The notes beneath the pieces are model-generated. The model made no database searches. It was given only the letters and a program-made list of their open reading frames with translations, and was not told the DNA's origin. Positions 4,600-61,383 of a DNA stretch of 64,000 bases are shown here, piece after piece (positions within the stretch are counted from its first letter, which is position 1; each line of letters begins with the position of its first letter). The DNA comes from a virus (lineage: Duplodnaviria > Caudoviricetes). The translations under genes were made by a program, and so were the position numbers. The DNA lies in IMG/VR virus record IMGVR_UViG_3300021403_000004, positions 32,001-96,000 of that record. One strand, written 5' to 3'.

Positions 4600-5178
4600 A
4601 TGGGAACACGAGGATTCATCACCTTCGCCGTGAACGACGAGGAGAAGACGGCCTACAACCACTGGGACAGCTACCCTGATGGCCTGGGCCTGGCGGTGCT
4701 AGGGTGGCTGCGGGAAGCGGCCAAGGACCCGGCGGCCTTGCGCCAGCAGGCAGCTGCCCTGCAGGTCGCCAGCCCGGGCAGCGCGCCCACAGACGAAGAC
4801 GTCGCCCGGCTCGCCGGCTTCGCGGACCAGGGCGTGGGCACCGGGAGCCTGCGCGACTGGTACGTCCTGCTGCGCGCCACGCAAGGGGAGCCGGGCCTGA
4901 TGCTGGCAGCGGGGGTCATTGAGGACGCCCGCGACTTCCCGCTGGACTCGCTGTTCGCTGAGTGGGGCTACGTCATCGACCTCGACGGAGACGGCCTGTT
5001 CGAGGTGTACCGGGGCTTCCAGAAGCAGCCGCACGACCTGGGCCGGTTCGCTAGCCGTAGCGAGCCAGGCGGCAACCACGGGTACTACCCGTGCGCCCGC
5101 ACGGCACGCTGGCCGCTGGCGGCACTGCCGGGCAACGAGGAGTTCCTGGCGCAGCTCCGGGAAGACGACGATGAGTAA
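4600..5178 (+). CDS. hypothetical phage protein
   Basis: purine-rich RBS; MGTRG..YNHWDSYP.GLG..EWGYVIDLD pattern. Confidence 0.75.
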   Translation: MGTRGFITFAVNDEEKTAYNHWDSYPDGLGLAVLGWLREAAKDPAALRQQAAALQVASPGSAPTDEDVARLAGFADQGVGTGSLRDWYVLLRATQGEPGLMLAAGVIEDARDFPLDSLFAEWGYVIDLDGDGLFEVYRGFQKQPHDLGRFASRSEPGGNHGYYPCARTARWPLAALPGNEEFLAQLREDDDE

Positions 5179-5182
5179 CCTT

Positions 5183-5840
5183 GCGGCCCGTGACCACTAG
5201 CCAGCCAACCACGCCATGCCGCCGTGAACCCGCAGCCAATGACCGTTAGCCAGCCAACGACGCCATGCCGCCACTCAGTGTCAGCCAGCCAACGTACCGG
5301 TGCCGGCAGCCAAGGAGCAACTAGCCAGTCATGAACCCGCAGCCAGGGGGCGTTAGCCAGCCAGGACAAAAATGCAGCCCTTGAACGTGTGCCAGCCATC
5401 GGGATCATGAGCTAGCCCGCAGTAAACGCGCAGCCATGGAACGCCTGCCTGCCATGATGATGATGATGATGATGATGATGCACATGACCACCAGTCAGCC
5501 ACACTAGACGAGCAGCCATCGGACGCTTGCCAGCCATCATGATGATGCACACGACCTGCAGCCAGGGGGCATTAGCCAGCCACGGTACATCAGCCCTGAG
5601 TGACGGTCAGCCAACGATGCGGAGCCGCAGCCAGGATATACGAGCCAGCCATCATCCCGCAGCCAGGGCATGCAGCCATACGACCTGAGCCAGCCAGCGT
5701 GCCGGTGTCCTGCAGCCACGGGTTTACAGCCAGCCAAGGTACGCGTGCCCCGCGCGGCCAGCAGAACTCAGCCAACCATGCAGCCAAGACGAAGTGGCCA
5801 GCCAGCAGCCTCCTGGCACGCGCGGCGAAGTAGCCAGCCC
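5183..5840 (+). repeat. TIGR-like dual-repeat array 1 (degenerate)
   Basis: recurring GCAGCCA-N9-AGCCAGCCA units; contains an (ATG)9 run at ~5454-5480. Confidence 0.8.
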
Positions 5841-5888
5841 GTGCCCCGATGAGTTATACTGCATCAGACACCAAGAAAGGACGAGGCC

Positions 5889-6137
5889 ATGACAACGCGA
5901 TGGCCTGACGGCTTCAAGCCCCAGTACTGGTCGGGTGACCGCTGGGTGCAGGAGGAGCGCGCCACGCTGCCCGGTGGCATCACGGCGGCGGAACTGCCGG
6001 CGTTCCTGGCAAGCGAGGGCATCCCGGGCACCGCGGAGCTCACTGCCATCACGGAATACGACGAGGACGGCCCCGTCGTGCAGCTCCGGTGGCTCACCGG
6101 CGTCCCGGAAGAGAAGGCAGGAGGGGACAGGGCATGA
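5889..6137 (+). CDS. hypothetical protein
   Basis: TATACT at 5855, GAGG RBS, ATGA coupling to the next gene. Confidence 0.65.
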   Translation: MTTRWPDGFKPQYWSGDRWVQEERATLPGGITAAELPAFLASEGIPGTAELTAITEYDEDGPVVQLRWLTGVPEEKAGGDRA

Positions 6138-6352
6138 TCGTCCACCGTGGCCTGAAGCACGTAAGCGCCACCGGCTCCACGCTCGGGTTCTCGCTAGAGG
6201 ACAACCTGCACGTGCGCCTGGAAGGCAAGGAAGTCCAGCGGGTGCTTGACGAGATCGCCTGGTCCGCACCGGAACTGCTGCACATGGCCCTGGAGCGGCG
6301 CCAGGTCCGGCTCATCACTGAGGCAGTCAGGAACGAGGAGGGCGCGGCATGA
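6134..6352 (+). CDS. hypothetical protein
   Basis: ATGA-coupled on both sides (MIVHRGL...). Confidence 0.65.
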   Translation: MIVHRGLKHVSATGSTLGFSLEDNLHVRLEGKEVQRVLDEIAWSAPELLHMALERRQVRLITEAVRNEEGAA

Positions 6353-7281
6353 CGCACTTCATCGTGCTGGCCTGCCTGGAAGACCCTGGCCAGCTGAGCG
6401 AGATGCTCGCGCCGTACGACGAGAACAGGGAAGCAGCGCCATACCGCAGCTATGAAGACGGCCTGCCCGAGGAGCACTGGGCCGTGAAGAGCCTGCGCGC
6501 TGAGGGCAAGCTCCCAGACGGCCCGCTGACCTGGCAGCAGGTCGCGGACGCGGTCAATGTCGCGTACTGCCAGGGTGCCGACGATGAAGGCGACCATCTG
6601 TTCCTTGATGAGGACACCGACCGGGCCTACATGATGTCCACGCGCAACCAGCAGTCCAAGTGGGACTGGTACACCGTCGGCGGCCGGTGGGGCGGTTCCC
6701 TGCGCTACAAGCCCGGGCACGCTGGCGAAGTCCTGATGCCAGAGCAGTCGTGGAGCTCACCGGAGAAGTTCCCGTTCTTCGGCTGCGATGGCGGCCCCAA
6801 GCGCGCGCTGGACCTGGAGAAGGTGCGCCAGGATGCGGAAGACGAGGCCAGGACGCTGTACCGCGAGTACCAGGGCCTGGTGGCAGGACTGCCAGAAGCG
6901 GTCCCGTTCAGCGTCTTCGCCGGCATGGTCAGCGAGGGCAGCGGCTACACCATCGAGCGCGCGCGGCAGGAGTACCACAGCCAGCTGCGGGTGGCACGAC
7001 TCAATGCGGAGGGCAGCCCGTTCCGGTGGTCCAGCAAGGACGTGCTGGAGGTGTTCTCCGTCAGCGAGGACGAGCACGCACGGCGGCAGCGGGACCAGGC
7101 CGTGCCCGGCTACGCGCTGCTCACGACCGACGGCGAGTGGATGGCGCCAGGCACGATGGGCTGGTTCGGCATGAGTGACGACGGCCCGGACGACCGGGCT
7201 GCCTACCTGCGCGCGGCCAACGCCTACGTGGACAGCCTGCCCGATGACGCGTGGCTGGTCGTGGTGGACTGCCACATCTAG
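6349..7281 (+). CDS. hypothetical phage protein
   Basis: 310 aa; KWDWYTVGGRWGG and terminal VVVDCHI motifs. Confidence 0.8.
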   Translation: MTHFIVLACLEDPGQLSEMLAPYDENREAAPYRSYEDGLPEEHWAVKSLRAEGKLPDGPLTWQQVADAVNVAYCQGADDEGDHLFLDEDTDRAYMMSTRNQQSKWDWYTVGGRWGGSLRYKPGHAGEVLMPEQSWSSPEKFPFFGCDGGPKRALDLEKVRQDAEDEARTLYREYQGLVAGLPEAVPFSVFAGMVSEGSGYTIERARQEYHSQLRVARLNAEGSPFRWSSKDVLEVFSVSEDEHARRQRDQAVPGYALLTTDGEWMAPGTMGWFGMSDDGPDDRAAYLRAANAYVDSLPDDAWLVVVDCHI

Positions 7282-7530
7282 CCAGCAGGAGAACGTGCCG
7301 CCATGACCGTGAAGCCAGCCCCCATGATGCTGAAACCAGTCATCATCCCGCAGCCAGAGCATATGAGCCAGCCAAGATCGCGCAGCCAGATCCGTTCAGC
7401 CAGCCACGATAGGCGAGCATCCTGCAACACGGCCAGTCCATGGGAGCCAGCCGAGATAGTCCAGCCCGCAACGCAGCCAGAGCACGCGAGCCAGCCACTA
7501 TGCCACAGCCCGACGGCTACAGCCAGCCCC
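7280..7530 (+). repeat. TIGR-like dual-repeat array 2
   Basis: GCAGCCA-N9-AGCCAGCCA units. Confidence 0.8.
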
Positions 7531-7583
7531 ACTTCAATGCCTGCGCAGAGGCAAGAGAACTGCGACCCGCTACCATCATGACC

Positions 7584-7696
7584 AGCCCCCGCCAGCCGGG
7601 GCTTACAACCTTTCTCCCCGGTTACAACAGCCCGCCTGCTTCGGGCGTGAGACCGTGCATGGCGCTTCACGCGGAAGGCGAGATCTGGCGGGGGCT
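7584..7696 (+). ncRNA. putative structured ncRNA family C, copy 1
   Basis: terminal stem GCCCCCGCCA/TGGCGGGGGC; internal motifs shared with 8286-8397. Confidence 0.55.
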
Positions 7697-7723
7697 CTCC
7701 CGGGCGCAGGCCCTGCAGTCACT

Positions 7724-7900
7724 GACATCCAATGGACTTGAGCCAGCCAGGGTAGATGTGCAGCCTCAACACCTGAGCCAGCCAATGGAGTACAGTCAAC
7801 GCACCTGAGCCAGCCAGTGAAGTACAGCCATGGCAGGTCAGCCAGCCAAGGTAAATGTGCAGCCAGAGCATGCTAGCCAGCCGAGGCCAAGATGCAGCCT
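7724..7900 (+). repeat. TIGR-like dual-repeat array 3
   Basis: 5 regular units; spacers 9 nt and 7/10 nt. Confidence 0.85.
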
Positions 7901-7925
7901 CACGATAACTGAATAAGGAGAACAA

Positions 7926-8089
7926 GGGCAGGCCAGGAATTGTCCGGCGTTCGGGGAGCGGAATCACACAGCAACATTCATGTGATCCTCGCCGCTCCTG
8001 TCACCGGGCAGGCAAGGCGCACGCCAGGGAAGGGCCTTACACTACAATCTCTTCCCGTGCCTTCAGGAGTTCGATCCTCCTGCTGTCCA
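7926..8089 (+). ncRNA. tRNA-like structured ncRNA family A, copy 1
   Basis: GGGCAG/CTGTCC-A acceptor-like stem; AGGAG-TTCGATC-CTCCT T-arm; two long arms with variable loops. Confidence 0.65.
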
Positions 8090-8116
8090 CGCAAGACAAC
8101 TGAATAAGGGGAACAA

Positions 8117-8281
8117 GGGCAGGCCAGGAATTGCCCGGCGTTCGGGGAGCAGGCTTATTGGAGAAATCCAGTCTCAGCTCTCTGCTCCTGTCACCGGGCA
8201 GGCAAGGCGCACGCCAGGGAAGGCTTCTAATTAGCAGGATGCTTTTCCGTGCCTTCAGGAGTTCGACTCTCCTGCTGCCCA
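8117..8281 (+). ncRNA. tRNA-like structured ncRNA family A, copy 2
   Basis: same scaffold, different loops; T-arm AGGAG-TTCGACT-CTCCT. Confidence 0.65.
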
Positions 8282-8285
8282 CGAG

Positions 8286-8397
8286 GCCCTCGCCGGCCGG
8301 ACCTCCACGGTTAGGCAACTGCCGGTTACAATAGCCGCCTGCATCGGGTGCGTCAACTGACATGCACGAGCGCACGGAAGGCGGATACGGCGAGGGC
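8286..8397 (+). ncRNA. putative structured ncRNA family C, copy 2
   Basis: terminal stem GCCCTCGCCG/CGGCGAGGGC, with compensatory changes relative to copy 1. Confidence 0.55.
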
Positions 8398-8481
8398 GCT
8401 CACCACTGAATAAGCACGTGCCGCCAGAAGACCTCGGCCAGCCAGCGGGATCGTGAAGCATAAACTGAATAAAAGAAACAA

Positions 8482-8631
8482 GGGCAGGCCAGGAATTGCC
8501 CGGCGCTCGGGGAGCGGAGAAATGTGTACTTCACGCTTCACCACCGCTCCTGTCACCGGGCAGGCACGGCGCATGGCAGAGAAGACCCTTTTTCTTCTCG
8601 CGCTTCGGAAGTTCAAGTCTCCCGCTGCCCA
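8482..8631 (+). ncRNA. tRNA-like structured ncRNA family A, copy 3
   Basis: same scaffold, shorter second arm; T-loop TTCAAGT. Confidence 0.6.
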
Positions 8632-8647
8632 CGCGCGACAACGTCAT

Positions 8648-8872
8648 CCAGCCGCCAGCGCTCTTAAGCCCGCCAAAGTAGACCTGCAGCCAGCAGATCC
8701 CAGCCATCGGACCCCAGCCAGCCATCGTTCTCCAGCCAGCGCTTGGCCTTGGCAATGCCTGCGCAGAGGCAAGAGAACTGCGACAGCCAGCGCATGTGAA
8801 TCCGCCAAGATCGCACAGCCAGATAACCTCAGCCAGCCATCGTTCTTCAGCCAATGAACCCGGGCCAGCCAA
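8648..8872 (+). repeat. TIGR-like dual-repeat array 4 (degenerate)
   Basis: CAGCCA-N9-AGCCAGCCA units. Confidence 0.7.
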
Positions 8873-8889
8873 GGGAAAGGACAGTACCC

Positions 8890-9432
8890 ATGACAACGAA
8901 GGTAAAGGCCGAAGCCGCTAACGACCGCGCCCGCCGGCTATGGGACGGGGACGCGCACAGCACGGCGCAGGCGCTGCTCAAGGAGCTGATGGACGACCCG
9001 TCGCCCCAGGAGGCCATCCTGGTGCTGCTGCCGTGGATCACCGACCGGGTCCGGGCGGCCATTCGCACCGACGTGCGGGCAGCGGAGGAGAGCGCCTTCA
9101 CTAACCCGTCCGGCCGGCCCGACCGGGTCGCCCAGCACATCCGCTCGCAATCGGGCGCGCTGCCCGCGCTGGACAACCTGGAGATGCTGCTGTCGCTGCC
9201 GGTCCTGGTGCCCGTCGCGGGCAGCGTGACGCAGTCAGTCCTGTGGAAGGACATGACCATCGCGGATCACCAAGCCAGAATCGGCATGATCAGCAAGCCC
9301 CTGGCCGCCATTAACGCGGCCATAAGCCGCCATCGGTGGTCTATCGCCGAGATAAAGAAGCACAAGGTGGAGTGCCTCGGGCAGATTGACCTCGCCGTGC
9401 TCCGGGCTGAGATGCTCAGCTCCCGGGCGTAA
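8890..9432 (+). CDS. hypothetical protein embedded between arrays (candidate Tas accessory)
   Basis: AAGGA RBS; 180 aa; flanked by arrays on both sides. Confidence 0.8.
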   Translation: MTTKVKAEAANDRARRLWDGDAHSTAQALLKELMDDPSPQEAILVLLPWITDRVRAAIRTDVRAAEESAFTNPSGRPDRVAQHIRSQSGALPALDNLEMLLSLPVLVPVAGSVTQSVLWKDMTIADHQARIGMISKPLAAINAAISRHRWSIAEIKKHKVECLGQIDLAVLRAEMLSSRA

Positions 9433-9448
9433 TACCGCCGCAGAACCT

Positions 9449-9867
9449 CAGCCAGCTATCGCAGGACAGCGAACTTGCCGCCAAGAGACCCTAGCCAGCC
9501 CTGGTTCCCCAGCCGGGAGCTTTTGCAGCCAAGCTACTACAGCCAGCCAACGACCTGCAGCCAAACTACCAGAGCCAGCCAAGGTACCGCAGCCTAGGGA
9601 GATCAGCCAGCCACTGAAGGCCTGCAGCCAAACTACCGGAGCCAGCCAATGCCGTGCAGCCAAGCTACTGGAGCCAGCCAACGATCTTCAGCCAACCTAC
9701 CGGAGTCAGCCAAGGACCTGCAGCCGATGATCATCAGCCAAGCTACTACAGCCAGCCAACGACCTGCAGCCAAGGATCGACAGCCAGCCAATGTTCTTGT
9801 GCAGCCATGTACTGACAGCCAGCCACGGAGCCGGTGGCACATGCAGCCAAGGTTTGTGGGCCAGCCA
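9449..9867 (+). repeat. TIGR-like dual-repeat array 5 (most regular; directly upstream of the tasA-like gene)
   Basis: ~11 units, mostly 32 nt: GCAGCCA-N9-AGCCAGCCA-N7. Confidence 0.9.
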
Positions 9868-9896
9868 AAGAAGAACAGAAGGGAAAACAAAAGAAA

Positions 9897-10793
9897 ATGA
9901 ATAAGGAGTACTGGCAGCTTCGCACTGCCGGGCGGAATTACTACGACGCCTACCGGCTCACCACCCGGATCGGCAACCGGCTGCGCGCGCTTGCCCGGGC
10001 CGGCGAGGCCTATGACATCGACCTTCATGCGCAGCTGGAAGCGGCGACTGCCATGAAGGACACCAGCGGGCGCATCCTCGTCCGCGTCTACAAGAACATC
10101 GGCCCCCTGAAGGTCCGGGAATTCCAGAAGGCCACCCTGGGCATCGGCGAGGTGTGGATGGCCCGGCTGATCGGGGAAGTGGGCGACTTCGTCACCTACA
10201 CCGAGGCGTGGTGGGAAACCCCGGATGACGCGCGCGGCCCGCTGGCCTCCGATGACTTCGATGACGACGACGATGAGCTCGGTGAAGAGGACGAGGACGA
10301 AGCGCCCCGGCCCAAGCGGGTGCTGGCAATCGGCGACGTGCGCTCCATGGGCGTCCGCGAGCTGTGGGCGTACTGCGGGCACGGTGACGCCGAGCGGCGC
10401 CGGCGCCGCAACCAGACGCAGGAGGAGGCCCTGGCTTCCGGGAACCCGGCCGCGAAGATGATCGTGCACCAGATGGCCGAGTTCGCGCTGCGCTCCAACG
10501 GGGCACCGGACAAGAACGGCAAGGCCCGCGGGCAGACCCCGTACTACCCGTGCTACGTGCGGGCCCGGGCGCACGCAGAAGAGCTGCACCCCGACTGGAA
10601 GGCCGGCCACGTCTACAAGCACGCGGTGCGGATAGTCGGCAAGGCCATCCTCAAGGACCTGTGGCGCGTCCAGCACGGCTACGAGCCCATCTACGGCGCG
10701 CACCAGGATGACTGGGTGCCGCGCCGCCCCCTGGTGCAGCCTGAGCGCACGGCACGAGCCGCCGTCCCGGGGCGCGCACCCGCTGGCGTGTAA
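9897..10793 (+). CDS. tasA: TasA-like Nop-domain RNA-binding protein (IS110 C-terminal-like, no nuclease domain)
   Basis: N-terminal coiled coil; LGIGEVWMARLIGEVGD, LWAYCG, GNPAAKMIV, HAVRIVGKAILKDLW match the IS110/Nop fold pattern; no DEDD/RuvC or HNH; flanked by dual-repeat arrays. Confidence 0.8.
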   Translation: MNKEYWQLRTAGRNYYDAYRLTTRIGNRLRALARAGEAYDIDLHAQLEAATAMKDTSGRILVRVYKNIGPLKVREFQKATLGIGEVWMARLIGEVGDFVTYTEAWWETPDDARGPLASDDFDDDDDELGEEDEDEAPRPKRVLAIGDVRSMGVRELWAYCGHGDAERRRRRNQTQEEALASGNPAAKMIVHQMAEFALRSNGAPDKNGKARGQTPYYPCYVRARAHAEELHPDWKAGHVYKHAVRIVGKAILKDLWRVQHGYEPIYGAHQDDWVPRRPLVQPERTARAAVPGRAPAGV

Positions 10794-10809
10794 AGCTCGC
10801 CACCGTTCT

Positions 10810-11032
10810 TCAGCCAGGATCCTGGAGCCAGCCAAGGTAAACGAGCAGCCAGAGAACAACAGCCAGCCCGCGAACTCGTGCAGCCATTGAAGACCAGCCA
10901 GCGTATTCGTGCAGCCATCCCCGCCCGAGCCAGCCATGGGCCGTGTGAACATGCAGCCACGCAACCAAAGAACAACAACCAGCCATTGACCATGTGACGG
11001 CTCTTAATAATCCACGCATGAGCAGCCAGCCC
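10810..11032 (+). repeat. TIGR-like dual-repeat array 6
   Basis: GCAGCCA-N9-AGCCAGCCA-N10 units downstream of the tasA-like gene. Confidence 0.85.
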
Positions 11033-11051
11033 ATCATCTGGTGAAGCAAGG

Positions 11052-11093
11052 AAAAAGCCCCGTACCGGGAAACCGGTGCGGGGCTTTTCTTTT
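11052..11093. terminator. bidirectional intrinsic terminator
   Basis: AAAAAGCCCCGTACCGG-GAAA-CCGGTGCGGGGCTTTTCTTT between convergent transcription units. Confidence 0.85.
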
Positions 11094-11121
11094 GCCTTTT
11101 TTCACGCTGCCCCTGGACGCG

Positions 11122-12108
11122 TCATGCCAGGCCCTTCACCACGGCCCAGTCGCGCAGCGCCTGCGCCGCGTGCTTGTTTCCTGCCGTGTGCATGAGCGTG
11201 GTCCACGCGCTGGTCTTGGCCCACAGCTCCTGGTCGTGCACGTCATGGAGCGCCGGGGCGGGCGGCACGGGGACTGGCGGCGCTGGAACGGGAGCTGGTG
11301 GCACCGGGACGGGAAACGGTCGGCCGGTGAGCGCAGTGTAGTCCGCGGCAAACTGGGGCAGGCTGACGCCGTCCAGGAATTCCCGGCTGTTGAGGTGCTC
11401 AGGCCAGATGACGGCCCAGCACTCCTGCACCTGCCGGCTCCAGAACGCGTCCGTGAAGCTCGTCTCCTGGGCCCACGTGATGAACGCCTCGTCGCCGCCG
11501 AGCTGCCCGGTGCCACCGGAACCATAGCCGCCGACCAGCACGGAGTGGCCGCCCTCGTCCGGTGAGCCGGGCACGTAGTCCCAGGGCTGGCCGACGCTGA
11601 ACTGGTCCTGGTTGGCGGACTGGACCACGATGCCCGTCCACACCGCGCCGAAGATGGCAATGGCGGCCTTGACCTCATCCGGGTTGGTGTAGTCGACGGC
11701 AGCGAAGCCGAGCGCCTTCACGCCGTCCGGGCCGCCGTTGGCCACCAGGTCCTCCAGCGCCGTCTGGATGTCCATGCCGTTGTCCTGCTGGGGGAAGCCC
11801 GGGTTCTGCGTGGCGTAGAACGCCCCTACCTGCGGCAATGTCGGGTAGTACTCCGTGCTGAGCACGGCCGTGACCAGGCGCCGGAAATCCGCCCATGTTA
11901 CCGCGACGCAATCGCCCGCACCTTCGGCCGGGAACCCTGCCGCGACGTTGGCGGGATCAGGCCCGTTGCCGAGCATCTGCCAGCCCTGCAGCCGCGCCAG
12001 GTAATCGGCTGCAGGCGGGTGCGCGGGGACCACGCCCGTCAGTGACCGGCTCAGCCGGACGCGCGGGCGCCGGGGGTCATTCGGGCGGCGGCCGAATTTG
12101 AGGGTCAT
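11122..12108 (-). CDS. papain-like cysteine peptidase (possible lysin)
   Basis: GDCVAV catalytic Cys, GGHSVLVGGY His, FITW; Pro-rich linker and small C-terminal domain. Confidence 0.7.
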   Translation of the reverse strand: MTLKFGRRPNDPRRPRVRLSRSLTGVVPAHPPAADYLARLQGWQMLGNGPDPANVAAGFPAEGAGDCVAVTWADFRRLVTAVLSTEYYPTLPQVGAFYATQNPGFPQQDNGMDIQTALEDLVANGGPDGVKALGFAAVDYTNPDEVKAAIAIFGAVWTGIVVQSANQDQFSVGQPWDYVPGSPDEGGHSVLVGGYGSGGTGQLGGDEAFITWAQETSFTDAFWSRQVQECWAVIWPEHLNSREFLDGVSLPQFAADYTALTGRPFPVPVPPAPVPAPPVPVPPAPALHDVHDQELWAKTSAWTTLMHTAGNKHAAQALRDWAVVKGLA

Positions 12109-12181: not shown

Positions 12182-12568
12182 TCACGTGCAGGGGTGATGG
12201 CCGTGCCGGGCAAACCACTTGTTCGCCTTGAGGAACCGGCCTTCTCGCCAGAAGCCCCATGCCCGGGACTTCGGGCCAGTGAGCATCAGCGTCCAGGCCC
12301 CGTGCTCGCCCGGGATGACCGTGTGCTGGTGCAGGGCCGGGCGCACCCGGGCTGAGCCTGCCATCAGCACGTCATCGCCTGCCGGGCTGCGATCGGTGTA
12401 GCAACCGCGCAGCATGACCGTGGCGAACCACCACGGGTGATCATGGAAGGCCCGGTCATCATCCGGCTTCAGCCAGTGGTGCAGGCGCACCGAGCCAAGC
12501 CTTGCCTCCAGCTTCCACCGGATGACGTACGGGCATTGCGGCAGCCCGAGCTTCTCGGCCCAGGTCAT
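12182..12568 (-). CDS. cupin-like protein
   Basis: RLHH..DDDRAFHDHPW..LRGCY..HTV..AWTL motif; start moved to MTWAEK because the upstream part is tRNA-like. Confidence 0.7.
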   Translation of the reverse strand: MTWAEKLGLPQCPYVIRWKLEARLGSVRLHHWLKPDDDRAFHDHPWWFATVMLRGCYTDRSPAGDDVLMAGSARVRPALHQHTVIPGEHGAWTLMLTGPKSRAWGFWREGRFLKANKWFARHGHHPCT

Positions 12569-12574
12569 CGTCAG

Positions 12575-12646
12575 CACCGGGGAATGGTTTCGGGCCACTG
12601 ACCTCTGCGTAATCTGCGCAGCGCTCTTCCTCTGAGCTACCCCGGT
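12575..12646 (-). tRNA. isolated tRNA-like cloverleaf (loop CAGATTA; non-canonical T-loop)
   Basis: ACCGGGG/CCCCGGT acceptor, GCTC/GAGC D-arm, CTGCG/CGCAG anticodon stem, AGTGG-CCCGAAA-CCATT T-arm. Confidence 0.6.
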
Positions 12647-12741
12647 CCGGCGGAAGCCCCCGGACTTCGTTGGCTCCCACTCGGTCATGTCTCTTACAGT
12701 ATCATACATTCACGCCTGCACGTATCACGCAGGACCATTGT

Positions 12742-17208: not shown

Positions 17209-17330
17209 GCAGCCATTGATCCAAGGCCAGCCAACACGATCGTGCCGCCAGGGACATGTCGCAGTTCTCTTGCCTCTGCGCGCAGGCGAAGCCAGCCATG
17301 CCTGTTCAGCCGTTGACCCAGGGCCAGCCA
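17209..17330 (+). repeat. TIGR-like mini-array, antisense to flanking genes
   Basis: GCAGCCA-N9-GGCCAGCCA units; TATACT at 17138 upstream. Confidence 0.65.
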
Positions 17331-17338
17331 TTGTGGCA

Positions 17339-17986
17339 CTAGGCCGCCCACTCCAGTGCCCACGCCTCATCCGGCACCCCGGTCCAGGGCATCACGCGCC
17401 CCCAGCTGACCATCCCCCGCGGGTGGGACAGCACGGCATGGCGCGCGTGCGGCAGGCTGACGCCGACGACGAGGCCAGGCACGATCATGGCCTCGTCAGC
17501 GCGCCTGGCCGACACCAGGCGCACATCTGCCCTAGGTGACCAAGCCAGCAGCACGTCCAGCACGTCAGCGATGCCGGCGCCGTCCTCGCCCCCGGCCATC
17601 GCGTGCAGCCGCGCGACCTCCTGCGCAGTCAGCGCCAGGCCCGTGACGGCCAGCAGGTGGTTGGCCACTGCCGTGGCCGCGCACGTGGGCGCCTCGTCAT
17701 TGCAGCCCAGCAGCCACCAGCCGGGCAGGACCGCAGGCTGGACGGGAGCGACGGCCGCGGCCTTCTGCACCGGGACCTTGCCCTGGCGCTTGGCCGCCTG
17801 CGCTGCCCGGCCCGCCGCGGCCCACTTCAGCGCCGCCTGCTTCTGGGCAGCGGACGGCTTCTTGCCCCGGGCCCGGGCGGTAGCCTGCGCCTTACGGCCG
17901 GCAGCGGCGAACTTCTTCCCGGCGGCCACTTGCGCAGGCGTGCGGCCGGCATGCGCGGCAAGCGGGGCCTTCGGGGCCTTGGCCAT
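17339..17986 (-). CDS. hypothetical protein with Lys/Ala-rich N-terminus
   Basis: CAGGAGG RBS; basic repeats followed by a Cys/His peptidase-like remnant. Confidence 0.65.
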   Translation of the reverse strand: MAKAPKAPLAAHAGRTPAQVAAGKKFAAAGRKAQATARARGKKPSAAQKQAALKWAAAGRAAQAAKRQGKVPVQKAAAVAPVQPAVLPGWWLLGCNDEAPTCAATAVANHLLAVTGLALTAQEVARLHAMAGGEDGAGIADVLDVLLAWSPRADVRLVSARRADEAMIVPGLVVGVSLPHARHAVLSHPRGMVSWGRVMPWTGVPDEAWALEWAA

Positions 17987-18000
17987 CGTGACCTCCTGGG

Positions 18001-18261
18001 CTAAACGGTATCCCTGGCAGCGTGCGCATAGAAGTACCCGCACCAGAAATGCGCGAATGCCCGGTCTTCGTCGCCCAGTTCACTGTGGTAGATGACAGCC
18101 TGCGCTTCGGCAATCCCGTCCTTGTTGACCGTGACGCTGCCGTCGCCTCCCCGCAAGACCAGCGGGACGCGCATGACCTCGCGCTCAGTGCCCTCCTCGA
18201 ACACGATCACGTCGTCGCCCGCGTGCTGGGCAAGGTAGCGCCCGCTTGGCAGCCGTGCCAT
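18001..18261 (-). CDS. hypothetical protein
   Basis: AAGGAGG RBS, TATACT upstream. Confidence 0.7.
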   Translation of the reverse strand: MARLPSGRYLAQHAGDDVIVFEEGTEREVMRVPLVLRGGDGSVTVNKDGIAEAQAVIYHSELGDEDRAFAHFWCGYFYAHAARDTV

Positions 18262-18305
18262 GTGCCCTCCTTCTTGCTGTATGCTGCAGTATAACGGCCG
18301 CAGGT

Positions 18306-18507
18306 AGCCAGTCAAAGAAACAGCAGCCCAGGGACGCGAGTCAGCCAAGGACCAGCAGCCCGAGATCGCTTGCGCGCCAAGGACCAGCAGCCCGAGATCG
18401 CTTGCCCGCCAAGGACCAGCAGCCCGAGATCGCTTGCCCGCCAAGGACCAGCAGCCGAACCAGATGAGCCAGCCAGAAGACGGCAGCCACCGCCGGTCAG
18501 CCAGCCG
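18306..18507 (+). repeat. TIGR-like array with three near-identical 32-nt units
   Basis: (GCAGCCC-GAGATCGCT-TGCCCGCCA-AGGACCA)x3 plus unique units. Confidence 0.8.
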
Positions 18508-18672
18508 AAGACTCCCTGACCGTCATGGCTCACCGGCCGCGGGGGCAGCCCGACTTCACGTTGTCCACCGGCACGAGGGCCGGGCAGTTCTGCGTCGTCA
18601 GCACGCCCCGCGTTAGCCCGGTCCTTACCTTGATGACCATCACGCCTCACTCTTCCCCGTTCCGTAAAACGA

Positions 18673-18822
18673 CCAGCCATGAGACACGTGCCAGCCTCAG
18701 CGGCCCTGCAGCCAAGCGACTACAGCCAGCCACCCCATGCGTGCCGCCCTATCCGCTCAGCCAGCCAGCGTAGATGTGCCTTATGCCTCCCCTTCCTGCT
18801 GCCACAGATCGACAGCCAGCCA
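18673..18822 (+). repeat. TIGR-like mini-array
   Basis: GCAGCCA-AGCGACTAC-AGCCAGCCA and similar units. Confidence 0.7.
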
Positions 18823-18835
18823 GCGTAGGCGTGCC

Positions 18836-21746: not shown

Positions 21747-24700
21747 GCGCCGCCTCCGGGGAAGGTCACCGTTGCCCGGCTGCTGGCAGCTGGCGTCACG
21801 CTGGCGCCAGCGCTGTAGCCCTTGATGACGTTCGCGGCAGCTGACACGGCGGGCAGCGGGGCCACCGCCAGCGAGCTGGCCAGCTGGGCCCGGGCCGTCA
21901 CCACGGCGGCTGCAGCCAGCGCTGCCGCGGTCGCAGCCGCCAGCACGGGCGTCCGGGCCGGGACCGCGGCCTGCGCGGTTCCTGCGCCCGTGGCCAGTGC
22001 GGCACTGGCGGTCACGCTCGCCACGGGCGGCTGGGCAGCCCCGGTCCCGGCGCCCAGGCCGGGAGCCTCAGCTGCCTGCGCTACCGGGCTGAGGGCCGCG
22101 CCCGTGCCTGCTGGCAGTCCCGGCACCCGGCCAGGCACGGGCGGCTGGGCAGTGCCCGTGCCAGCGCCCAGGCCCGCTGCGGCGACAGCTTGCGCACCAG
22201 GAGACTGCGCCGTGCCTGCGCCCGTGGCCAGCCCGGCACTCGCCGTCGTGCTGCCTGACGTGGACGCCGTGGCCGTCAGTGCCGCGCCCGTACCGGAAGC
22301 CAGCCCGGCAAGGACGGTGACCTGCGCACCAGGGGGCTGGGACGTGCCCGCACTGACGGCCGTGCCCGGCGTGAGCGCCACGGCTGGCTGCTGCGCGGTC
22401 CCGGCACCGGGCGCCAGCCCGGCACTGACCGCGTCTTGTACTGCCGGGAGCTGGGCCGTGCCAGCGCCCGTGACCAGCCCGGCGGCTGCCGCGAGCTGCG
22501 CGGCCGGGGCTTGCGCGGTTCCCGTGCCGGAGGCAAGGCCAGAAGCCGTTGCCGCGGTGGCCACGGGCGGCTGCGCGGTCCCGGTTCCGGTGGCAAGGCC
22601 CGGCTGCGCGGTAACTTGCGCACCCGGAGCCTGGGACGTGCCCGCGCCCGCAGCCAGCCCGGCATTTGCCGTGGTGTTCCCTGACGTCGATGCTGACGGG
22701 GCAAGTGCCGTGCCCGTCCCGGCAGCCAGCCCGGCACTGACGGTGACTTGCGCACCCGGAGCCTGGGCGGTGCCCGTGCCCGTGGCCAGTCCCGTGCTGG
22801 CAATCGCGAGCGCTCCCGGGGCCTGGGACGCGCCCGTGCCTGCGGCCAGTCCCGCGCTGGCAATGACCTGCGCTCCCGGGGGCTGGGACGTGCCCGTGCC
22901 TGCGGCCAGTCCCGCGCTGGCAATGACCTGCGCTCCCGGGGGCTGGGACGTGCCCGTGCCTGCGGCCAGTCCCGCGCTGGCAATGACCTGCGCTCCCGGG
23001 GGCTGGGACGTGCCCGTGCCTGCGGCCAGTCCTGGAGCAGCCGTGACCTGCGCGCCCGGAGCCTGGGAAGTACCTGTCCCGGCAGCCAGCCCGGCAGGAG
23101 CGGCAGCCACGGCAAGGGGGGTGTCCAGCGCCGCGCCGGTGCCCGTGGCCAGCCCCGGAACTGCCGTGACGACGGCAAGAGGGGTATCGAGTGCCGCGCC
23201 CGTCCCGGCAGCCAGGCCCGCTGGCGCCGTGGTGGCCGGCACCGTGGCCGCCGGGCTGGCGATGGCCTGCTGCTGGCGCCGGTAGCGCCGCTGCCACAGG
23301 TCCGACCCGGGCTGCACGGGCGGCGCCGTCACGGCCGGCTGGGCAGGCGGCCCCTGGAAGGCCAGCACCCAGTCGGGATCGCCCTGGCTGTTGCTGCCCT
23401 TGGCCGTGGAATTGTACGTCGTGCCCGTGGCAGCAGGCGACGTGGCGCCGTTGACGGGGTCAATCCAGGTCGCGGTGTACCCGGGATTCAGCAGCGCCTG
23501 GTTGACGGTGATCGTGGTGGCGTGGCTGAGGTACACCACGGCCAGCGAGCCGTCTGGCGTGATGGAGCCGGTGACGTAGGCGTCCGTCGTGGAGGACTCA
23601 TACTGGCTGGTGGTGTACGTGGAGTGCGTGCCGCGCCCGGACGTGATGAACTGGCTGGCCGTGTCCGGCAGCAGGTTCTGCCAGCCGGGCAGCCCCTCGA
23701 ACGCCGTCCTGATCGCCAGCGCGCTGTTCTTCCAGAACCAGCCGGTCGCCGCCTGGTTCTGGGCGGTGGCCGGCCACTCCCAGACGCCCTCATCACCGTG
23801 GATCTTGCCGCGCGCGCCTGACGACAGCGCCCACCAGGACTCTTGCCGGAAATTGCGGTCGAACGCGAAGCTCGACCCGCCGACGTACGATGAGCCGCCC
23901 TGGTAGAAGTAGCCGTCCCCGGCGATCACCGGCACGGTGCCGTCAGCCGAGTACGCCAGCTCAACCCCGTAGTAGATGACCTGGTAGCTGTAGACGAAGT
24001 TGTACTGGGCGTTGGCGAAGCCCCACGCCTGGTGGGTGTTATTGCCGTCCAGCGTCAGGCGGCTGGTGGTCTCGGGATTGTTCTCGATGGACACCACGTG
24101 CGCGTCCCCGGCCGCGCGCACGCCCGTCATGAACGCCGTGATCAGCGCGTCATTCTCGCCGAAGTAGTCATCGGCAAGGTTCCAGACGAGGTTGGGCAGG
24201 CCTTTGTACCGGTTGCCGAGCGCTGTGCCGTACGCGGTGAACTCTGCCGCCGACTTGCCGAACAACGGCCCGGGACCGGAGCTGAAGTCGCTATCGTAGC
24301 CGATGGCGTTCAGGAACACGCAGATGCCCTTGGCCCGGGCGCTGGCCAGGAAGTAGTCGATCCGCTGCCAGTACGCTTCCGTCAGGCCCGACGACGGGCT
24401 CGCGCCCGATGTCCCGGTTGACGGCGCGCCGCCCTGGAAGGGGTACAGCCCGTCGAACGTCACGCCCTGGTCGTTGATGTTGCCGGACTGGGTGGTGCCC
24501 ATCGGCTTGGTGTAGACGACGTTGACGCCCTGGGCCTGGCGGGTGGCCAGGTAAGTGTCGTAGTCGGCCTGCCAGGCGCCGGACGTCCAGCGCCCCACGT
24601 TGCCGCACAGCGCCCAGGCTGCGTCGCCCCACACCAGCCGGGGCGTGCCGTACTGGTCGGTGAAGTACCCGTTCGCGCCGCCCGCGGTGCCCGTGATGAC

Positions 24701-31635: not shown

Positions 31636-32610
31636 CTAGTGCGGCTGCCCGCTGGGAGACAACACCTCCGAGCCGCAAAGGAGCTGATGGCAATGCTCGC
31701 CATCGCCGCGCTCGTGTTCTTCATCATCACCGCCGTCGTCGCGTGGGTAGACAAGACCATTTCGGTCCCGCACTTGATCGCCTTGACGGCCGTCGGCCTG
31801 GCCTTCCTCGCTGGTCACTTTATCTGGGGCTGGTGGGGCACCCGTACTGCTCCCTGACAGGGACCGCGGGCGTCCTGCAGCCTGGTCACCACGCGCACCC
31901 TGTAACCCGCGTCCGGGCAAGACCGTGCCCGCCTCGTCCCAGGGCGCCTCTTTCTTCGGCGTCCAGCAGGAGATCCCCGGCTCGGCATGCGCGTGGTAGT
32001 ACGCCAGCTCAGCACTGAGGTTCGCGTAGTCCTCATGCCAGGCCAAATGGTCGGCAACGTACGGGAAGCCCGTGCGCACGGCGCTGAAGGAGTGGCAGCC
32101 GACGTCCATCATCGGGACGTGCACGGCCAGCGTGGTGTCCACGTCCGCGTGGAAGACGCCCGGCTCAACCTCGTTATCCCAGAAGTGGGCTTCCCAGCCG
32201 ATCACGTTCTCGCGCTGGCTGTAATGCGCCGGGATGCGGTCAATCCGCAGGCCCAGCCCGGCCTTGTGATAGCGCGGGTGCCTGCTGAGGACCTCAGCCA
32301 GGTGCCAGGGCCAGTCAAGGGGGCAGCCTTCCGACGGCACCACGTCGGGATCGGTGACGACGTACTTCTCCCGGGCGTTGGCTGCGCGGAACCAGCCCCG
32401 CGTCCACAGGTCACGCGGGTTGCCGCCGCCGTCGTCCACTACCCGGACCCCGGCTTTCTGCACGTCCCGGAGCCAGTCCACGGCCTCCGGCCAGGTCGTG
32501 CCGTGGTCAACGATGGTGGTCTCCAGGCCGGCCGCCTGCATGGCCGCGAGGCAGAGCCTGCCGTAGGTCACCCTGTCCCGGAAGATGATGAAAGCGCGCA
32601 AGAGCGTCAC
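31636..32610 (-). CDS. GT-A-type glycosyltransferase
   Basis: IVDHGTT, YVVTDPD, ADVDTTLA; last ~100 codons overlap an opposite-strand gene and may be spurious. Confidence 0.7.
   Translation of the reverse strand: MTLLRAFIIFRDRVTYGRLCLAAMQAAGLETTIVDHGTTWPEAVDWLRDVQKAGVRVVDDGGGNPRDLWTRGWFRAANAREKYVVTDPDVVPSEGCPLDWPWHLAEVLSRHPRYHKAGLGLRIDRIPAHYSQRENVIGWEAHFWDNEVEPGVFHADVDTTLAVHVPMMDVGCHSFSAVRTGFPYVADHLAWHEDYANLSAELAYYHAHAEPGISCWTPKKEAPWDEAGTVLPGRGLQGARGDQAAGRPRSLSGSSTGAPPAPDKVTSEEGQADGRQGDQVRDRNGLVYPRDDGGDDEEHERGDGEHCHQLLCGSEVLSPSGQPH
31687..31857 (+). CDS. small two-TM membrane protein
   Basis: AAGGAG RBS; two hydrophobic helices. Confidence 0.65.
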   Translation: MAMLAIAALVFFIITAVVAWVDKTISVPHLIALTAVGLAFLAGHFIWGWWGTRTAP

Positions 32611-46065: not shown

Positions 46066-47091
46066 CTACTCCATATCGGAATAGGGGTCTTCCATGTTCA
46101 TCTGCAGGGCGAGCATGGCCTGCTGGCCGCTCAGGACGGGCTTGCGCGGCGGAGTAGGCTCTGAGCGCTTGGCCGGGCCGGCGTTATCGGTGCGGCGGAA
46201 GAACTCCATGCCCCGGCCGTCAGCCAGCCGTGAGCGCACTTCCTCCGGCTCGGCCTGCACCCAGTTGGACAGTGACTCCACCGCGCCGTTCAGCGCGCGG
46301 GCCGCCGCCGTCGAGTCCGGGTAAGCGGGATCGAGCACGGGCGCGACGTCCACCAGCTGCACCGACAGCAGCGTCCGCATGGGGTAGTTGAACTCGCTGA
46401 CGCCCCACTCATCGCCGCCCGGGAAGACGCGGAACGCGAAGCTGGAGTGCCGGACGTCGCCGCGCTGGCAATATTCGATAATGTCTGCCCGGGACTGCGG
46501 CGGGATCACGTCGTACAGCAGGCCCTGCTCGTCCACCTTGAGGTCCAGCGTGCGAGCGTACGTCGTGCCCAGCAGCAGGTCATCCTTGTGGTTGAACCGG
46601 CAGACGACATCGGGCCAGTGATCAGCCCGGGACTCGTTGAACGCCAGCGGCGAGACCTGCTCCACGAAGCCGCCCAGCTTGCGCGACAGCTTGCCGAAGC
46701 AGGCCGCGTACCCGTAAATGTGCTTGGGGTCCTCCGGGTGCGCCTGGCGCACCTCCAGCGGGAACCGGGTGAACCGGCGCTCCGGGAAGCCGTCCGGCGG
46801 CACCTCGCCAAAAGATGAGCGCTGCGCGCCGGACACCGTGATGCCGAACTTGCGGGCTGCGGCCAGGATCTTCGGCAGCGCCTGCTTGCCGAAGGGCGAC
46901 TGCGGCGCGCGGACCAGGGCATTGCGCGTGTGCGGGGCATCGTGCACGGGAAAGTGCCGCTTGCTGCGCGGCACCGTGCGGCCCGAGGAATCCTTCTTGC
47001 CGCCGTCCTCGATGTAGGCGAACGCGCTGTCGGGCAGGTTGTTGATCGCTGCCGTGTTCATCGCGGCCCGCGGCTCGTCACTCATGTGCAT
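46066..47091 (-). CDS. HK97-family prohead protease with N-terminal extension
   Basis: GYAACF..LGGFVEQ..FNH..LLG..SSFAF..L.DVAPV..PAY; N-terminal LPDSAFAY..FPVHD domain. Confidence 0.92.
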   Translation of the reverse strand: MHMSDEPRAAMNTAAINNLPDSAFAYIEDGGKKDSSGRTVPRSKRHFPVHDAPHTRNALVRAPQSPFGKQALPKILAAARKFGITVSGAQRSSFGEVPPDGFPERRFTRFPLEVRQAHPEDPKHIYGYAACFGKLSRKLGGFVEQVSPLAFNESRADHWPDVVCRFNHKDDLLLGTTYARTLDLKVDEQGLLYDVIPPQSRADIIEYCQRGDVRHSSFAFRVFPGGDEWGVSEFNYPMRTLLSVQLVDVAPVLDPAYPDSTAAARALNGAVESLSNWVQAEPEEVRSRLADGRGMEFFRRTDNAGPAKRSEPTPPRKPVLSGQQAMLALQMNMEDPYSDME

Positions 47092-54085: not shown

Positions 54086-54357
54086 TGGCTGCCTTACCTT
54101 GCTTGGCTGCACCTCTTTCTTGGCTGGCTGTCGTGCTCTGGCTGCACGCATCGCGTGGCTGGCTGCCGTGCCCTGGCTGCACGCATCGCGTGGCTGGCTG
54201 CCGTGCCCTGGCTGCACGCATCGCGTGGCTGGCTGCCGTGCCCTGGCTGCACGCATCGCGTGGCTGGCTGCCGTGCCCTGGCTGCACGCATCGCGTGGCT
54301 GGCTGCCGTGCCCTGGCTGCACGTCTGCAATGGCTGGCTGTCGCCTTCTGGCTGCAC
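54086..54357 (-). repeat. TIGR-like array of eight 35-nt units, mostly identical
   Basis: minus strand GCAGCCA-GGGCACGGC-AGCCAGCCA-CGCGATGCGT repeated, with unique end units. Confidence 0.9.
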
Positions 54358-61299: not shown

Positions 61300-61383
61300 A
61301 GGAAGAACGACGAGTCGAACGCCACGGGTCACCCCGCGATCCGCTTTCAAGGCGGTCCCAGGCACCGGCCTGGATGATCTTCC
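61300..61383 (-). tRNA. tRNA-Ser(TGA)
   Basis: loop CTTGAAA; long variable arm. Confidence 0.8.

Follow-up and report, generated by a model that had tools for sequence, protein, structure and literature searches.

The stretch of DNA analysed here, which we call the window, comprises 64,000 nucleotides, from base 32001 to base 96000 of the virus record IMGVR_UViG_3300021403_000004, which is linear, 106,870 bp long and an estimated 69% complete. It contains a plus-strand locus built around tasA (9897..10793, +), a gene whose 298-residue product has a coiled coil and a Nop domain and no nuclease domain, and around five plus-strand arrays of two alternating short repeats with the layout of TIGR arrays. 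Array 1 (5199..5840) is irregular, with several long intervals in the variable stretch termed spacer A below; array 2 (7313..7900) consists of two blocks, 7313-7529 and 7741-7900; array 3 (8687..8871) is made of short units; array 4 (9449..9867) lies directly upstream of tasA, and array 5 (10811..11032) downstream of it. The unit is closed by an intrinsic terminator (11053..11088, +), a 16-pair stem with 10 G-C pairs followed by a run of T.

An earlier note on this DNA had described arrays on both sides of the gene in a unit that ends at a strong terminator, and so it proved: arrays lie upstream of, between and downstream of the genes, ahead of the terminator just described. The note had, however, confined the system to 7280..11093. 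Arrays do occupy that span, but array 1 lies upstream of it, and others are found at ~17.2-18.9 kb, at 54091-54354 on the minus strand and outside the window. The span itself also holds two features that the note left unmentioned, a 180-residue gene (8890-9432) and about 1 kb of structured RNA, not part of any array, at 7596-8635.

Contigs from four soil metatranscriptome libraries (four studies) match the locus at 100% identity and cover all five arrays around tasA: 5269-5796 in array 1, 7309-7885 in array 2, 8714-8864 in array 3, 9526-9825 in array 4 and 10821-11131 over array 5. This coverage fits transcription of the arrays; carry-over of DNA into the libraries is another possible source. 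Among the contigs listed, none lies over 7.9-8.6 kb, the 180-residue open reading frame (ORF) or most of tasA, which is no evidence of absence. A 31-nt exact repeat with a small hairpin (7537-7567 and 8756-8786, +) makes some contigs seem joined across 1.18 kb, the letters on the two sides being otherwise unrelated.

A nuclease-less Tas protein between dual-repeat arrays

The motifs by which the earlier note had recognized the protein are all present in the translation of 9897-10793, namely LGIGEVWMARLIGEVGD, LWAYCGHGD, GNPAAKMIVHQ and HAVRIVGKAILKDLW, together with the acidic run DDFDDDDDELGEEDEDE. The product matches no Pfam family; among PHROGs it is matched by phrog_4285, labelled 'transposase', with an expect value (E) of 8.8e-21. 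We found 58 relatives, all without a name or labelled hypothetical, in which the gene is intact and conserved; in a metagenome scan for relatives, the single protein as query gave nothing and an alignment (A3) gave matches. An AlphaFold model for which 32 of the 58 relatives supplied the alignment input (predicted local distance difference test score, pLDDT, 85.3; predicted template modelling score, pTM, 0.77) shows a pair of long helices at the N terminus, a helical domain and a single beta-hairpin.

Searching with this model, the check that the earlier note had proposed, returned TasR or TasH chains as all ten of the top Foldseek matches (E 2.5e-6 to 7.4e-5). Alignment by VIA-align ranked the known folds in the same sense: Z 18.6 for TasH (21kl_B; root-mean-square deviation, rmsd, 2.6 over 199 residues, chain 66-306) and 18.3 for TasR (9mty_A; rmsd 2.4 over 188 residues, chain 110-319), then 13.7-14.4 for the IS110 recombinases IS621 and ISCro4, and 7.5 and 6.4 for Nop5, a weaker likeness. 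The family profile (A1) matches the TasR sequence at E 3.4e-17 and that of TasH at 2e-12. SpTasH (PDB 21kl, 9w03, 9w04) and TaTasR (PDB 9mty) are thus the best matches by structure and by profile alike, and the last Nop helix (HAVRIVGKAILKDLW in the query) is common to all. Assignment to the Tas family, the earlier note's central claim, stands on this fold and profile evidence, which shows the coiled coil and the Nop part only and neither a RuvC nor an HNH domain, and on the dual-repeat TIGR layout of the arrays.

Unlike SpTasH and TaTasR, which carry an N-terminal HNH or RuvC nuclease, the protein here has none, as the note had read it: the model begins with the coiled coil at residue 3, and the alignments to TasH and TasR start past their nuclease domains. 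Upstream the reading frame stays open for no more than 21 codons, as far as a GTG at 9834, which is too short for an N-terminal nuclease domain; the protein is therefore a TasA. Domain breaks in the profile alignment show that, compared with TasR and TasH, it carries some 50 extra residues after the GIGE helix and before the LWAYCG segment. The acidic insertion noted before is real and corresponds to the loop of the inserted beta-hairpin; it is acidic, modelled with low confidence and variable in length. In the C-terminal tail, which more distant members lack, H260 is invariant and Y266 nearly invariant in 44 close relatives.

The PHROG label and the IS621 and ISCro4 scores might be taken to mean that tasA is the decayed remnant of an IS110-type transposase, next to which the repeats are unrelated. 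The kinship is genuine in that IS110 bridge-RNA recombinases have a homologous coiled coil and RNA-binding domain and a tandem-guide logic. The alignment to IS110 is limited, though, to chain residues ~124-322, past the RuvC domain, and the frame leaves no room for the N-terminal domain; TasH and TasR outscore IS110 by fold and by sequence; the gene is intact in 58 relatives, and arrays adjoin it in every close relative examined. Nor does the locus resemble IS621 or ISCro4 in having a RuvC or Tnp catalytic part, element ends, or a single ~180-nt bridge RNA in place of arrayed 35-nt guides. We consider decay from a transposase so improbable that it can be set aside.

TIGR arrays as published consist of two alternating repeats of 8-12 nt, each starting with UG (box D) and ending with CCA (box C), with spacers of 9 nt; they flank tas on one side or on both, and a terminator closes them (PMC12045711). 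The arrays here read as an edge repeat AGCCAGCCA (9 nt), a variable stretch, a loop repeat UGCAGCCA (8 nt; (U)GCAGCCA), exactly 9 nt (spacer B) and the next edge. The published box C/D rule fits them because both repeats end in CCA and keep the G of box D; what departs from it is the AG start of the edge and the loss of box D in 32-nt units. Both repeat types in fact end in GCCA, here and in relatives, so that the earlier description of the repeats as divergent holds for the edge, AG in place of UG, and overstates the rest: the divergence is mild, and close relatives have canonical repeats.

That these are genuine arrays is evident from their statistics. Within the window AGCCAGCC is found 62 times where 6.2 occurrences are expected, and GCAGCCA 85 times where 24.6 are, numbers reached in 0/100 shuffles in either case; within 7280-11093, 82 CAGCC cores are on the plus strand and 3 on the minus strand. 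Over the genome, core-to-core distances peak at 14 nt (54 pairs), 18 nt (68), 32 nt (39) and 35 nt (52), each of which arises about 1.1-1.9 times in Markov controls (n=20). The spacing reported before is thereby borne out: spacer B is always 9 nt, and the interval from the edge to the CAGCCA core is 8 or 11 nt, equivalent to the 7 or 10 nt previously counted ahead of GCAGCCA. So are the short units, of 35 and 32 nt. Complete units number 40 genome-wide and 17 within 7280-11093 (nine of 32 nt, five of 35 nt and three longer); in the 35-nt units (15/40) the 11-nt interval comprises a 9-nt spacer A followed by TG (13 units) or AG (2).

Box C/D-like motifs in the repeats, together with the likeness of the Nop fold to Nop5 (Z 7.5 and 6.4), invite the thought of RNA-modification guides, with TasA as the Nop5 of a box C/D-like particle that recruits a methyltransferase to host or phage RNA. 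Archaeal Nop5, in the box C/D small-RNA particle, does share the Nop fold and the recognition of such motifs. Its match falls well short of the Tas matches, however, the protein here is accompanied by neither a fibrillarin partner nor a K-turn/L7Ae context, and no methyltransferase gene lies in or beside the locus, the nearest methyltransferase-like PHROG matches being at 33.9 kb and 57.9 kb; moreover, the Tas family targets DNA, not RNA, and published TasR was inactive on RNA substrates (PMC12045711). A modification system is hardly credible on these grounds.

A partner gene and structured RNAs within the locus

The 180-residue gene between arrays 3 and 4 (8890..9432, +) is a conserved partner of tasA. 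Homologues occur in 42/105 related loci, and in 41 of these the gene directly precedes tasA in the same orientation. All 42 are found among the 60 loci with a TasA profile match at E <=1e-50 (6/60 lack upstream sequence), and the gene is absent from all 44 more distant TasA loci. In L011 the homologue instead lies ~2 kb downstream of tasA. The family is large, a threshold of E <=1e-3 giving 1,688 cluster representatives and one of E <=1e-10 giving 950, mostly of 140-210 residues, and it is unannotated: 0/22 and 0/42 members score above the Pfam cut-off, and the partner matches no PHROG. Here, then, is a large protein family tied by gene order to one TasA clade.

Modelling gives a beta-hairpin followed by a long helix (pLDDT 82) and suggests that the partner is a small helical protein, probably dimeric. 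The fold is not a known one: Foldseek found no match at E <=1e-3, the best VIA-align score over 48,161 chains was Z 4.9, and the partner profile met only coiled-coil noise among PDB sequences (best E 0.089). It could act in assembly, in processing or as an effector.

A second gene with tasA, and dual-repeat arrays upstream of, between and downstream of both, recall the TasParB-TasA operons of Faure et al. 2025 (PMC12045711). Unlike TasParB, the partner here has no ParB_N match: 0/22 family members match ParB_N at E <=1, and no solved fold matches the partner model, so that we rejected the identification with published TasParB. No ParB_N domain (PF02195) was found at E <=10 anywhere in the 106,870-bp record (69% complete), these comparisons with ParB_N stopping short of HHpred sensitivity. 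The two genes are distinct in a 103-kb relative, G001 (the record of locus L006), where the partner gene precedes tasA and a ParB_N gene of its own stands beyond the arrays on the downstream side. This ParB_N gene is an ORF at 46761-46997 (+) of G001, ~1.3 kb past the last array downstream of tasA, with a match above the cut-off (E 8.7e-9), and is probably of the published TasParB type. Neither 'ParB' nor the partner motifs were found among 9,182 listed rows of Table S1 (PMC12045711).

Ahead of array 3 lies the structured RNA. Three tRNA-like cloverleaves of ~185 nt, paralogues of one another, are found on the plus strand at 7907..8093 (copy 1), 8098..8285 (copy 2) and 8463..8635 (copy 3), scoring 211.5, 207.6 and 183.8 bits respectively against our model (R1); each combines a T-arm and an acceptor-like stem of 6 bp with two long arms whose tips vary. 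The T-arm of the three looks canonical, 49 pairs are predicted, six of them with compensatory changes, and AACUGAAUAA precedes each cloverleaf. They are non-coding, because the conserved nucleotides that the three copies share do not keep a common reading frame. A further element is present twice on the same strand (7596..7705 and 8308..8412), with 22 predicted pairs, six of them compensatory between what are only two sequences. Minimal versions consisting of an acceptor-like stem and a T-arm lie upstream of the partner genes of two relatives (L069, 2257-2318, E 4e-9; L068, 2335-2429, E 9e-7).

None of these elements belongs to an Rfam family: at gathering thresholds Rfam reports only the tRNA cluster of the phage, and at E <=1 over 5000-11400 only sub-threshold matches at the terminator. 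ARAGORN finds no tRNA at 7.9-8.6 kb, nor in L068-L073. The tRNA-like RNAs might signal processing by RNase P or RNase Z, or else serve as decoys. Ordinary tRNA genes are also seen beside arrays in a 132.9-kb viral contig (L011, 4143-8406), where four of them are interleaved on the tasA strand with irregular TIGR-like units (CGAUWCCCA). Such proximity is not a general trait, since tRNAs are present in 7/39 relative loci and interleaved with arrays in L011 only.

Dispersal of the units and turnover of their spacers

Intervals with two cores 18 nt apart number 58 over the 107 kb of the genome, 51 of them intergenic and seven in doubtful ORFs (by a crude gene call based on G+C at the third position). 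Beyond the main block (5.2-11.0 kb), sites in the window lie at 12.8, 17.2, 18.3-18.7, 50.3, 51.0, 54.1-54.35 and 57.9 kb; outside it, at genome positions 318, 2381, 17447/17479, 31140/31228, 98816 and 99889, eight positions in seven intergenic regions. Two groups stand out. Scattered units and mini-arrays on the plus strand (17210..18830) lie between structural genes of the minus strand, to which they are antisense. A minus-strand array of seven complete 35-nt units, five of them identical (54091..54354), immediately precedes the large terminase gene, which is also on the minus strand; the five tandem copies look like a recent amplification of one unit and would supply a high dose of one guide.

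The 9-mers have a mean nearest-neighbour distance of 2.75, compared with 3.00 +/- 0.10 in column shuffles, of which 5/500 were as low. Identical and near-identical units suggest that the arrays grow by duplication of units and subsequent divergence, and runs of such units offer a handle on how the expansion proceeds.

Comparison with relatives brings out what is kept and what is replaced. Arrays adjoin tasA, with the same CAGCCA core, in five relatives (L071, L104, L073, L069 and L068), and are beside the gene in every close relative examined. On both sides of tasA, L071 has regular units of 35 nt with the canonical pair UGACAGCCA and UGCAGCCA; the pair in L104 is CGACAGCCA and CGCAGCCA; more distant relatives have other repeats, such as CGAUACCCA, or CGGCGCCU with CGAAAAUCU. 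Across seven loci of relatives, with 1-36 9-mers each, none of the 85 9-mers of this phage recurs identically; repeats are therefore kept and spacers replaced.

Dispersal itself is shared with G001, whose TasA is 32% identical. Its 52 edge-to-edge units are all on one strand, with 0 in reverse and 0 in the control; a looser pattern finds 67 units, spread over 79 kb (15.0-93.8 kb) with tasA near 43 kb. The repeats of G001 end in CCU or UCU and start with CG, a variant of box C/D. The clade is set apart by two traits, a partner protein gene upstream of tasA and guide units in many intergenic regions. Where units extend over whole phage genomes, a search confined to the surroundings of tas genes would overlook them.

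Units spread through intergenic regions genome-wide could also be pictured as DNA sites, iterons or centromere-like or operator arrays, bound by the partner or by another phage factor, with TasA incidental; the partner is small, helical and probably dimeric, and a ParB_N gene lies near the locus in G001. This would leave the strict strand bias of the cores (82 plus, 3 minus in the locus; 52 forward and 0 reverse units in G001) without a reason. Two alternating CCA-ending repeats with fixed 9-nt spacers are moreover the RNA architecture that Tas proteins bind, and the repeat sequences co-vary with TasA clades. We regard sites acting as DNA as very unlikely.

Targets, mode of action and phage setting

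Taken together, these observations lead us to assign a probability of roughly 85% to the locus being a working, or recently working, dual-repeat TIGR-TasA system in which RNAs guide a TasA dimer to DNA. We infer the following course of events. The arrays would be transcribed together with the surrounding plus-strand genes, and the transcripts cut inside the edge repeat to yield RNAs of ~35 nt, some of 32 nt, each to be bound by a dimer of the nuclease-less TasA, with its coiled coil and Nop domain. The two 9-nt spacers would then pair with opposite strands of an 18-bp DNA site that reads, on one strand, spacer A followed by the reverse complement of spacer B, a geometry we adopt because of the published 8-nt 3' overhang (PMC12045711). 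Without a nuclease the outcome would be binding, which most likely blocks transcription or another transaction on host or competitor DNA. Blocking or repression rather than cutting, the outcome that the earlier note had favoured, is expected because the nuclease is absent and because of the published work on MbTasA, another TasA, which binds target DNA and represses transcription under guidance by tigRNA (bioRxiv 10.64898/2026.09.09.750476). RNA-guided DNA binding or repression, by analogy, is the most likely function.

As to what is bound, a scan of this genome for sites of its own guides (31 distinct spacer pairs) gave one match with two mismatches, compared with 0-2 in three control arrangements, and in G001 (67 units) the single two-mismatch match lies in the array itself. 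Because guide pairs match no better than controls, self-regulation through perfect sites is unlikely within the available sequence; and because two fairly complete genomes with 40-67 guides each show no self-targets, host or competitor DNA is indicated. The 18-base target predicted for the fivefold repeated guide has at least 120 matches, over many phyla, among 185,579 species genomes, which is chance level for a G+C-rich 18-mer and hence uninformative.

Several observations weigh against this assignment. No guide pair has a match with <=1 mismatch, in either geometry, in this genome (107 kb, 69% complete) or in G001. In 13/40 units, those of 32 nt, the interval from edge CCA to loop core is 8 nt and only 3/13 end in TG; units lacking box D may be non-functional or have a different mode of action. 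A further 12/40 have long spacer-A intervals of 14-29 nt. The edge begins with AG rather than UG: the three nucleotides before the edge core are AGC in 41/68 intervals, with GGC in 7/68 and TGC in 6/68, so that the G of box D is retained and the U mostly is not. Nor is spacer B free sequence, its position 6 being C in 49/68 intervals; position 5 is A in 37/68. The bias may stem from a motif common to the targets, from a structural requirement or from the units having one ancestor. Counted by eye, position 6 is C in 11/13 units of L071 and in 5/10 units of L104. Some units are on the strand opposite to neighbouring genes, and the RNA-library matches are contigs that show neither strand nor processed ends. 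Finally, the Tyr/His processing pair of SpTasH, Y289 and H296 on the C-terminal loop of its Nop domain (PMC13421893), has no clear counterpart: H260 and Y266 of TasA, which are reversed in order and differently spaced, may or may not correspond to it.

Part of this evidence would suit dispersed units that act as RNA, being bound or cut by TasA, with or without the partner, at intergenic positions in the polycistronic transcripts of the phage, as a device for mRNA processing or stability. Such a device would account for the intergenic position of 51/58 two-core intervals (the other seven being in doubtful ORFs), for the presence of identical units in an array just ahead of the terminase gene, for the positional bias of spacer B and for the failure to find a DNA target in this genome or G001; dual-repeat Tas proteins are, besides, reported to cleave pre-tigRNA (PMC13421893). 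It would not explain why spacers turn over completely between relatives while repeats are kept, as is expected of guides, nor the long regular arrays that flank tasA in relatives, nor units antisense to adjacent genes; and a published TasA binds DNA under RNA guidance (bioRxiv 10.64898/2026.09.09.750476). We judge this alternative unlikely, and retain RNA-guided binding of DNA by TasA as the preferred explanation.

The closest published systems are the dual-repeat TIGR-TasA systems of FpTasA, from Flavonifractor plautii, and MbTasA (PMC12045711; bioRxiv 10.64898/2026.09.09.750476). These share with the present locus a solo coiled coil and Nop protein, CCA-ending alternating short repeats, 9-nt spacers, arrays on both sides, a terminator and phage origin. 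The locus differs from them in having units of 35/32 nt rather than 36 nt, an edge starting with AG rather than UG and one third of units without box D; a Nop-domain insertion of ~50 residues (the beta-hairpin with its acidic loop); units scattered genome-wide; a conserved partner gene that is not ParB; and tRNA-like RNAs inside the locus.

The TIGR-TasA family having been published in 2025-2026, recognition of a TIGR-TasA locus is not in itself new. What goes beyond the published picture is the dispersal of the arrays, the partner gene, the three tRNA-like RNAs in the locus and the thirteen 32-nt units without box D. In the TIGR-Tas texts consulted we met no account of arrays dispersed in this way, nor of this partner, the full Table S1 and fig. 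S14 lying outside the comparison. Among the 9,182 listed rows of Table S1 (PMC12045711), the contig names of six relatives were not found, and of four motifs searched only LWAYCGHGD occurred, once, in a JGI Tas protein that resembles distant family members. Natural role, targets, array growth and whether TasA works alone are described as open questions of the field in PMC12045711 and bioRxiv 10.64898/2026.09.09.750476, and the dispersed arrays, the new partner family and the tRNA-like RNAs make this variant worth specialist attention.

A more elaborate scheme can be offered tentatively, as possible with the odds against it: that the subclade runs a genome-wide guide regulon. Dozens of guides (at least 40 here, 52-67 in the relative G001) would be expressed from many intergenic regions, perhaps at different times of infection, and loaded on TasA together with the coiled-coil partner, the complex then silencing the DNA of the host or of rival elements. 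The arrays would grow by duplication and divergence of units, and the tRNA-like minihelices would recruit host tRNA-processing enzymes to cut the precursor.

The record in which the locus lies has a tailed-phage structural module (large terminase, portal, protease, major head protein, head-tail adaptor and tail terminator) and a cluster of ~30 tRNA genes, found by ARAGORN and Rfam. Its G+C content is 66.8%, and the stretch is present in soil metagenome runs. Comparison of TasA with a phage collection by tblastn gave a sole hit, to Arthrobacter phage Talia1610 (36% identity, 36% query coverage), too slight to name a host; megablast of the DNA of 7000-11400 against the collection gave no match. 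On these grounds the 'actinophage' of the earlier note is not established.

Three observations concern other parts of the window. Within the tRNA cluster, 61301-61383 (-) matches the Rfam model of tRNA-Sec with 50.8 bits (gathering score 47) and is not listed by ARAGORN. Conversely, ARAGORN places a tRNA-Ile(GAU) at 12574-12646 (-), inside an ORF (12182-12709) with the PHROG label 'cysteine dioxygenase'; it is absent from the Rfam list at gathering score and is probably a false call. Lastly, a long, imperfect, GCC/GGC-rich tandem repeat with a period of ~75-80 nt (22650-23210, +) includes a few GCAGCCA words but looks like a coding repeat and bears no relation to the TIGR arrays.

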